Source of the DNA: Escherichia coli
GTDB lineage: Bacteria; Pseudomonadota; Gammaproteobacteria; Enterobacterales; Enterobacteriaceae
Direction: 5' to 3' (one strand)
NCBI RefSeq assembly: GCF_017348835.2
Contig: NZ_CP071375.1
Length of the DNA: 64,000 bases
The notes below the pieces were generated by a model. It was not told the origin of the DNA. It ran no database searches and saw only the letters and a list, made by a program, of their open reading frames with translations. The position numbers and the translations under genes are program-made. Below, piece by piece: positions 20,021-21,050 of the stretch (within the stretch, counting starts at the first letter, position 1; the number at the start of each line of letters is the position of its first letter).

Positions 20021-20518
20021 CTACATCTGATATTTTTTATCTCTTAAAGATTCATAAATCCGTTGACAAGTCACTCCTGCGATGTAGCGTTTGTCAGCAA
20101 TTTCAGCATAAAGCTGAGCTTCTGCTGCAATATCTCCGAGCATGTTGGTGAGCATTCCTTCGGCGGCTTTGGTTGTTTTGCCTCTGACGGCAGCGGCAAG
20201 ATTTGCGGTATGCTGCGCTGCGTCAAGGCGTATGGCATATTTTGTTGCTTCGGCACGCAGCTGGTTAACACTATCAGACAGATCAGCAGCCCTGGCAGAA
20301 ATTTCAGCGGCTTTCTGTTGTGCATCTTTAACAGCCTCATCACGGGATATACTTCGCCCCTGTTCAATTATTCGAGCAGCAAATTGGACATTTACCTCTT
20401 GAGATAATTCGGCAGCATCACGCTCCGCCCATTTTTTTTGCCATCCTCTGTCGCTCCAGACATTACCTACGACAAATCCTACCAACACGAGCAAAATCAC
20501 CGTGAATATCTGATTCAC
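20021..20518 (-). CDS. rzpQ: Rz-like spanin (i-spanin)
   Basis: 165 aa with N-terminal TM helix and coiled-coil-like region; Rz1-like ORF embedded in +1 frame. Confidence 0.7.
20071..20325 (-). CDS. rzoQ: Rz1-like outer-membrane lipoprotein (o-spanin), embedded in rzpQ
   Basis: 84 aa from [23 protein letters not shown] with lipobox; proline-rich. Confidence 0.65.
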
Positions 20519-21050
20519 TGTTCTATCCCCCAGCAGGTTAATGCACTCTCCTGGTCACGACGAATAACCTGACCGTAACAATTATTTGAACGAATGCGGC
20601 AATCACGTCCACCGTCCTTTATCCACCAGCGAATCGCCTCGCATGCGCCTTTACGATCACCGGCATTAAGCCGCTTATAAAACGTCGACGGAAAACACTT
20701 ACCAGGGCCAATGTTATATAGGGACAGAATGACGCGATACCGGCTTTCTGTGGCTCGGTCAGTGGAACTTTTATATTGCGCTCCACCCATGCCAGCGCCT
20801 TATCCCGCTCAATGGCGTTAACCTGGGCGCATTTTTCCTTCGACAGTTTCATTCCCGGAATAACAGGTTTACCGTCCACCATCGTTGCTCCCCGACAGAT
20901 GGTCCATATGCCGGAGCCATCGCGGTATGCAGTGGTGTGATTCCCCTCTTTTTCATCCAGAAACTGATCGAGAATGTCGGGGGCAGGAGCACTGGCGGCA
21001 ATCAGTGCCAGAACAGCAGCCGACAGGCTGTATCTGATTTTTACGTTCAT
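20515..21050 (-). pseudogene. rrrQ: Phage lysozyme, split by a frameshift
   Basis: N-terminal 20619-21050 and C-terminal 20515-20790 parts lie in different frames; junction near 20712-20720. Confidence 0.7.

Follow-up and report, generated by a model that had tools for sequence, protein, structure and literature searches.

Bacteriophage lysis of the type that combines a pinholin, a SAR endolysin and an embedded two-component spanin has been described (PMC6139136). The pinholin alone depolarises the membrane, lethally so when triggered; the SAR anchor of the endolysin is a weakly hydrophobic N-terminal transmembrane stretch, rich in Ala, Gly, Ser and Thr; and release of the enzyme from the inner membrane, with its activation, on depolarisation or by a pinholin is regarded as 'the definitive test' of a SAR endolysin (PMC9239132). 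SAR endolysins can also release spontaneously, lysing cells without the aid of a holin; the motif E-X8-D-X5-T is taken as the catalytic signature of a "true lysozyme"; and the R protein of Stx phage 933W is listed as a SAR endolysin construct (PMC9239132).

The stretch of Escherichia coli DNA analysed here (64,000 nucleotides of contig NZ_CP071375.1, assembly GCF_017348835.2; hereafter the window) carries a lysis module at 20.0-22.2 kb, on its minus strand, made up of essQ, a YdfR-family gene, rrrQ, and rzpQ with rzoQ embedded in it (Table 1). Judged by its protein sequences, the cassette is of the phage-21 type, with pinholin, SAR endolysin and embedded two-component spanin, and it appears to share both lysis paradigm and protein families with S21/R21 of phage 21 (equivalent to EssD/RrrD of DLP12; PDB 3HDE, 3HDF, 4ZPU), R21 being a more distant homologue of RrrQ (E=4e-16). 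In phage 933W, R is identical to RrrQ, once the latter is repaired as described below, at 159 of 177 positions (90%), and S to the window holin at 58 of 71; unlike R21 and 933W R, the window copy cannot make the full enzyme. Phage PhiR63_1 (PV340573.1) is colinear with the window, in the order cspB-holin-ydfR183-R-Rz-cspI, and 98% identical to it over 3.8 kb. The genes of this phage and of 2H10 (NC_049950.1) are in frame and belong to complete phage genomes of 46-48 kb, whereas the window copy is frameshifted and resides in a remnant without virion genes.

That remnant is the cryptic lambdoid prophage Qin, an assignment made by setting the annotation of strain PE164, at identical coordinates, against the K-12 feature 'cryptic prophage Qin': the element has its K-12 location, with the ydfJ remnant on one side and rspB on the other, and carries the csp/gns/ydf set. 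The Qin cassette of K-12 MG1655 (rrrQ b1554, essQ, rzpQ-rzoQ) thus occupies the same chromosomal site, from the ydfJ remnant to rspB, and its gene order, cspI-rzpQ/rzoQ-rrrQ-ydfR-essQ-ynfU-cspB-cspF-ydfT, is that of the window. The two differ in that K-12 rrrQ is in frame, encoding 177 aa, whereas the window rrrQ has an additional TA; in that K-12 ydfR encodes 103 aa and overlaps the rrrQ start, whereas the window gene of this family encodes 183 aa and is followed by a spacer of ~320 bp; and in that ydfT is intact in K-12 but truncated by an insertion sequence in the window.

Table 1. Coordinates of the lysis cassette, the rrrQ lesion and the truncated antiterminator gene in the window.
Feature	Coordinates	Strand	Remarks
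rrrQ pseudogene, SAR-type phage lysozyme (endolysin), prophage Qin	20515..21050	-	+2 frameshift
TATATA run with extra TA; TATA in intact alleles	20715..20720		alignments with RM9088 and PhiR63_1
Truncated N-terminal reading frame, 143 aa	20619..21050	-	from ORF list; SAR-like anchor, E35, D44 and T50 within
Native C-terminal 66 codons plus stop (NIGPGKCF...GIEQ)	20515..20715	-	frame differs from that of the start codon
rzpQ, i-spanin (Rz-like), intact	20021..20518	-	PF10721, E=4e-38; phrog_312, E=4e-58
rzoQ, o-spanin (Rz1-like), +1 frame within rzpQ, intact	20071..20325	-	phrog_11621, Rz-like spanin
YdfR-family ORF (DUF1327), 183 aa, between holin and endolysin	21372..21923	-	phrog_2091, 1-183/183, E=1e-110
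essQ, phage-21-type (pin)holin, intact	21928..22143	-	PF04971 'Bacteriophage P21 holin S', E=4e-34
ydfT (Q-like late antiterminator), 5'-truncated	23789..24513	-	IS end replaces start codon and first codons
IS3-family insertion sequence, 1310 bp, adjoining ydfT	24514..25823		100% identical copies annotated

The original prediction, made from the sequence of the window, was that the N- and C-terminal parts of a prophage lysozyme gene lie in different frames around 20712-20720 and that a 2 bp excess in a TATA run fits the break. Alignment with intact alleles bears this out: the TATATA run falls inside the interval named, and exactly two bases, TA on the minus strand of the window, are in excess of the RM9088 sequence. 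The window reads ...TCA TTC TGT CCC TAT ATA ACA TTG GCC... on this strand and the intact RM9088 allele reads ...TGT CCC TAT AAC ATT GGC CCT GGT AAG..., so that the change at the site is from CCC TAT AAC ATT to CCC TAT ATA ACA TT; any TA unit of TATATA could equally be the extra one, to judge from the alignment. This 2-bp gap is the sole difference from RM9088 across the aligned stretch of 124 bp, and PhiR63_1 differs from the window inside rrrQ only by the TA and by two SNPs that leave the protein unchanged. The frame is shifted after codon 111. The ORF read from the native start accordingly comprises 111 native residues (to ...ASFCPY) and 32 out-of-frame residues (ITLALVS...) before a stop codon, and NIGPGKCF... 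through to the end of the gene is contained in an ORF of 91 aa (20515..20790, minus strand) in the ORF list. The identification of the gene as a lysozyme also stands, for both parts match the Phage_lysozyme profile PF00959, the N-terminal part at profile positions 2-75 (44 bits) and the C-terminal part at positions 70-125 (36 bits) of 125, against a gathering cut-off of 22.3. The whole domain is nowhere covered by a single uninterrupted frame, and rrrQ is filed here as a pseudogene of the family.

Without the 2 bp, rrrQ becomes a single ORF of 534 nt encoding 177 aa, whose product agrees at every residue (100% identity) with the endolysins annotated in phages 2H10 and PhiR63_1; the split frame is therefore not a chance pattern. 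The repaired protein is identical to K-12 RrrQ at 165 of 177 positions and matches the endolysin family phrog_7 (E=1e-62). Its translation contains E35-(GNHTTAYR)-D44-(GSGIW)-T50, which conforms to the lysozyme triad motif given above, and these three residues are in register with the R21 structure 3HDE in an alignment covering residues 31-174. At the N-terminus, 12 of the 17 residues from 8 to 24 (SLSAAVLALIAASAPAP) are Ala, Ser or Pro, and the segment is weakly hydrophobic and rich in Ala and Ser, as a SAR anchor should be. A search of NCBIfam returned only a sub-threshold GTA-endolysin match for the lysozyme, and none for the other cassette proteins.

Using as query the 100 bp centred on the insertion, we found matches in 941 complete E. 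coli genomes. The extra TA is present in two of them, PE164 (pig, China) and F2_81 (pig, Australia); the other 939 are in frame at the site, and the comparison with intact rrrQ alleles called for by the original prediction thus identifies the in-frame state as ancestral. PGAP/RefSeq labels the gene 'lysozyme, frameshifted' in both genomes, in PE164 at the same coordinates as in the window. Over the first 51 kb, the window differs from PE164 by one SNP (at 16470) and by a different arrangement of IS3 at 24.5-27.1 kb. PE164 may be a very close relative or another assembly version of the window sequence, and for this reason only F2_81 counts as certainly independent. F2_81 differs from the window in Qin by 28 SNPs, all within 13058-18246, and is therefore a different isolate.

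Frameshifts occur also in two core genes further along the window: ynfF (gene 41102..43524, plus strand) has a -1 frameshift at 41706, AA becoming A, and ynfM (gene 50244..51496, plus strand) a -1 frameshift at 51175, where G5 has become G4.

The abundance of such lesions in the window and PE164 (ynfF and ynfM, and also the small terminase subunit and head decoration protein genes) could hint at an error-prone assembly, in which case the true genome would read TATA and the extra TA would be a consensus error. Gain of a dinucleotide outside a homopolymer is not known as a typical long-read error. F2_81, however, was isolated on another continent and assembled separately, and it has the same insertion. 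The ynfF and ynfM frameshifts are common to F2_81 too, and so behave as inherited markers and not as random errors: a comparison with ~5,280 complete E. coli genomes places each of them in PE164 and F2_81 alone. Poor assembly of PE164 lost support as the cause on the same grounds, these indels being common to F2_81 and present in no other complete genome. With rrrQ they make three lineage-private frameshifts inside 31 kb. Because the independent F2_81 assembly from another continent carries the identical insertion, the extra TA is probably an inherited mutation of the lineage, and we regard an error of sequencing or assembly as highly improbable.

For 178 nt the two frames are open together, and in principle a shift within this overlap could join the two halves of rrrQ; TATATA would then be a site of programmed recoding, by ribosomal -1/+2 frameshifting or transcriptional slippage, providing full-length endolysin at a low, regulated level. 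A scan of this dual-open zone revealed neither a slippery heptamer of the form X XXY YYZ, whichever frame was read, nor a homopolymer of at least six bases, an absence that counts against recoding. The native sequence would, moreover, be restored only by a shift exactly at TAT-ATA, where tRNAs should be unable to re-pair. Genuine programmed frameshifts are conserved among relatives, whereas the out-of-frame layout seen here is not, 939 of the 941 related genomes and the active phages being in frame. With neither a slippery sequence nor conservation among relatives, the site was rejected as a programmed frameshift site, and we consider recoding scarcely credible.

As to the remainder of the cassette, the holin gene essQ and the embedded Rz/Rz1 pair had been predicted to be intact, and they are: all are full-length, and their PHROG matches agree with these identities. 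EssQ is identical to K-12 EssQ at 71 of 71 positions and scores 116.7 bits against PF04971 (cut-off 26); it begins MKSM, with dual starts at Met1 and Met4, as would be expected of a phage-21-type pinholin. RzpQ, of 165 aa and with a GTG start, both as in K-12, is identical to its K-12 counterpart at 148 of 165 positions. RzoQ, of 84 aa, is colinear with K-12 RzoQ (b4689) and is absent from the PGAP annotation of PE164; its lipobox, LTSC, fits the consensus [LVI][ASTVI][GAS]C (PMC6139136), and the pair has the arrangement of an embedded two-component spanin (Rz/Rz1), RzpQ bearing an N-terminal TMD and the rzoQ ORF being wholly enclosed by rzpQ. The GTG start of rzpQ overlaps the stop codon of rrrQ (GTGA). 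Ribosomes in the shifted frame would stop ~100 nt upstream of it, and translation of rzpQ, if coupled to that of rrrQ, would lose this coupling; rzpQ could still be initiated independently with the help of a GGGGGA motif that precedes the GTG by 7 nt.

Between holin and endolysin, PGAP calls only the first 112 codons of the YdfR-family gene, as an 'incomplete' pseudogene. PhiR63_1 annotates the same gene of 552 nt as intact, with the same spacer, and the 183-aa version is probably a native variant of the module rather than a pseudogene. Further decay of the cassette in the ydfR region was considered and ruled out by the end-to-end match to phrog_2091 and by the identical layout in PhiR63_1. 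On the opposite strand PGAP annotates a 'hypothetical protein' of 86 aa (21164..21424, plus strand; WP_001306174.1) that matches phrog_2572 over its full length. This ORF and the YdfR-family ORF overlap by 53 nt, and the annotations are in conflict: the PhiR63_1 record has the full 183-aa YdfR-family gene and does not annotate the antisense one. In a scan for promoters and terminators, promoter-like sites proved no more numerous than in shuffled sequence.

The original prediction concluded that the lysis cassette would lack only the endolysin. For the four lysis genes this is correct; as a description of a working unit it fails, since ydfT is truncated by an IS and the prophage has no morphogenesis genes. 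In the PE164 annotation, Qin is without portal, head or tail genes. A fragment of the large terminase gene (15188..16741, minus strand), encoding 517 aa where RM9088 has 700 aa, terminates right at the start of tfaQ. The terminase/tfaQ junction marks a deletion that took all the morphogenesis genes; the corresponding junction in K-12 Qin is different, nohA-stfQ-tfaQ.

ydfT has lost its start codon and first ~11-16 codons, the longest ORF remaining corresponding to positions 17-252 of 253 in phrog_127. At the junction F2_81 and K-12 read ATGAACCTTGAAGCCTTACCAAAATATTACTCCCCAAAA, and the window has IS sequence up to ...GGTTCA followed by ACTCCCCAAAA; over a longer form of the same site, F2_81 and K-12 read ATGAACCTTGAAGCCTTACCAAAATATTACTCCCC and the window has IS sequence up to ACTCCCC. 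Copies of the IS are annotated 'IS3 family transposase, AL1L pseudoknot'; the length of the element fits IS629. Relative to F2_81, ydfU, rem, hokD, relBE and ydfV are missing beside it. The IS is present at 32 places in PE164 and at a similar number in F2_81, the median among genomes that have it being 4, which points to an expansion of the IS in this lineage. In F2_81, which carries the extra TA, ydfT is undamaged; the TA insertion therefore predates the IS event. In PE164 the same IS copy lies in the opposite orientation, and another 1.29 kb has been lost.

Other parts of Qin also depart from the K-12 prophage. Its far arm (~27100..33250) is without the dicC/dicA/dicF/dicB immunity and division-inhibitor region of K-12; it carries instead pseudogenes for an ISEsa1 transposase, a DUF7167 protein, a SAM-dependent methyltransferase, a DUF977 protein and an exonuclease fragment. 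Apparently intact excisionase and integrase genes then adjoin rspB, the intQ of K-12 being a pseudogene. cspF (23412..23614, plus strand) is annotated as frameshifted and truncated; it is so in RM9088 as well, whose rrrQ is intact, and this lesion therefore arose earlier than the rrrQ frameshift and is more widely distributed.

Taken together, we put at roughly nine chances in ten the reading that rrrQ of the cryptic Qin prophage was broken by duplication of TA in an ancestor of the pig-associated lineage, as one step in the neutral decay of a remnant. In this ancestor, one TA unit of the short TATA repeat would have been duplicated, presumably by replication slippage, which is plausible though the repeat has only two units. 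Translation from the native start would now yield the 143-aa product, which would keep the SAR-like anchor and Glu35, Asp44 and Thr50 and would be without the last ~40% of the lysozyme domain (profile positions 76-125), including the conserved YN(I/V)G segment just after the break. Because this much of the domain is missing, the product should not fold into an active lysozyme and is presumably dead as an enzyme. The C-terminal part has neither its own start codon nor an export signal. If the pinholin were triggered, the published pinholin/SAR-endolysin model (PMC6139136) predicts a cell depolarised and killed, its murein undegraded, and so no lysis for the spanins to complete. The module is also cut off from its activator, since the IS has deprived the Q antiterminator gene of its 5' end. 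Since the Q gene is cut and virion genes are absent, the frameshift would be one step in neutral decay.

Loss of the endolysin might instead have been favoured, as a form of domestication, either because a derepressed remnant does harm by leaky export of its SAR endolysin or because a non-lytic pinholin/spanin module serves the host. An unregulated copy could well be costly, given that SAR endolysins can cause holin-free lysis spontaneously (PMC9239132); the holin and both spanin genes have stayed intact while the lineage was gathering frameshifts and IS copies; and Q is intact in F2_81, so the endolysin was lost before Q. Yet the loss happened once, in one lineage (2 of 941 genomes), with no recurrence to indicate selection, and in most E. 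coli the rrrQ of this cryptic prophage is undamaged. The frameshifts in the nearby core genes ynfF and ynfM fit relaxed selection or drift better, and the intact neighbours of rrrQ are short targets, of 216-498 nt, whose survival is expected by chance. Selected inactivation is on these grounds very unlikely. The present data would look alike under neutral decay and under selected loss, and we read them as ordinary prophage decay.

The broader proposition, that the rrrQ frameshift marks a genome-wide episode of inactivation in a globally spread pig-associated lineage, or else that endolysin loss was selected, we consider unlikely. Were it true, the episode (three private frameshifts in the 64-kb window and ~32 IS copies) would resemble early reductive or host-restricted evolution, and selected loss would mean that the host has retained a non-lytic pinholin/spanin module. 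Should the pattern of pseudogenes and IS copies hold genome-wide, it could indicate host restriction, a separate and more interesting question; indeed the ynfF and ynfM frameshifts and the ~32 IS copies are more noteworthy than the rrrQ frameshift itself. The latter is already known, through the RefSeq pseudogene label in two genomes, and concerns a known gene, prophage and lysis paradigm; lysis genes of defective prophages routinely suffer point inactivation, and the lesion is of little significance in itself. A literature search on rrrQ/essQ, on a Qin endolysin pseudogene and on strain F2_81 found nothing relevant. The use of the lesion is rather as a marker: the pig-associated clone found in China and Australia is cleanly identified by the combination of the rrrQ insertion (+TA) with the ynfF and ynfM frameshifts. 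Where a holin and spanin are reported intact, the state of the upstream antiterminator should be checked before a lysis phenotype is deduced.

A second mobile element is present near the end of the window, at ~56800..64000 (PE164 2655505..2665100), inserted in an autoinducer-2 transporter gene that survives as a tqsA remnant. It carries genes for a major capsid protein, a head decoration protein (frameshifted), a small terminase subunit (frameshifted), a RepA-family helicase and an SSB, and in addition a PerC-family regulator and an Icd-like division inhibitor, a content that suggests a small phage or satellite-like element.
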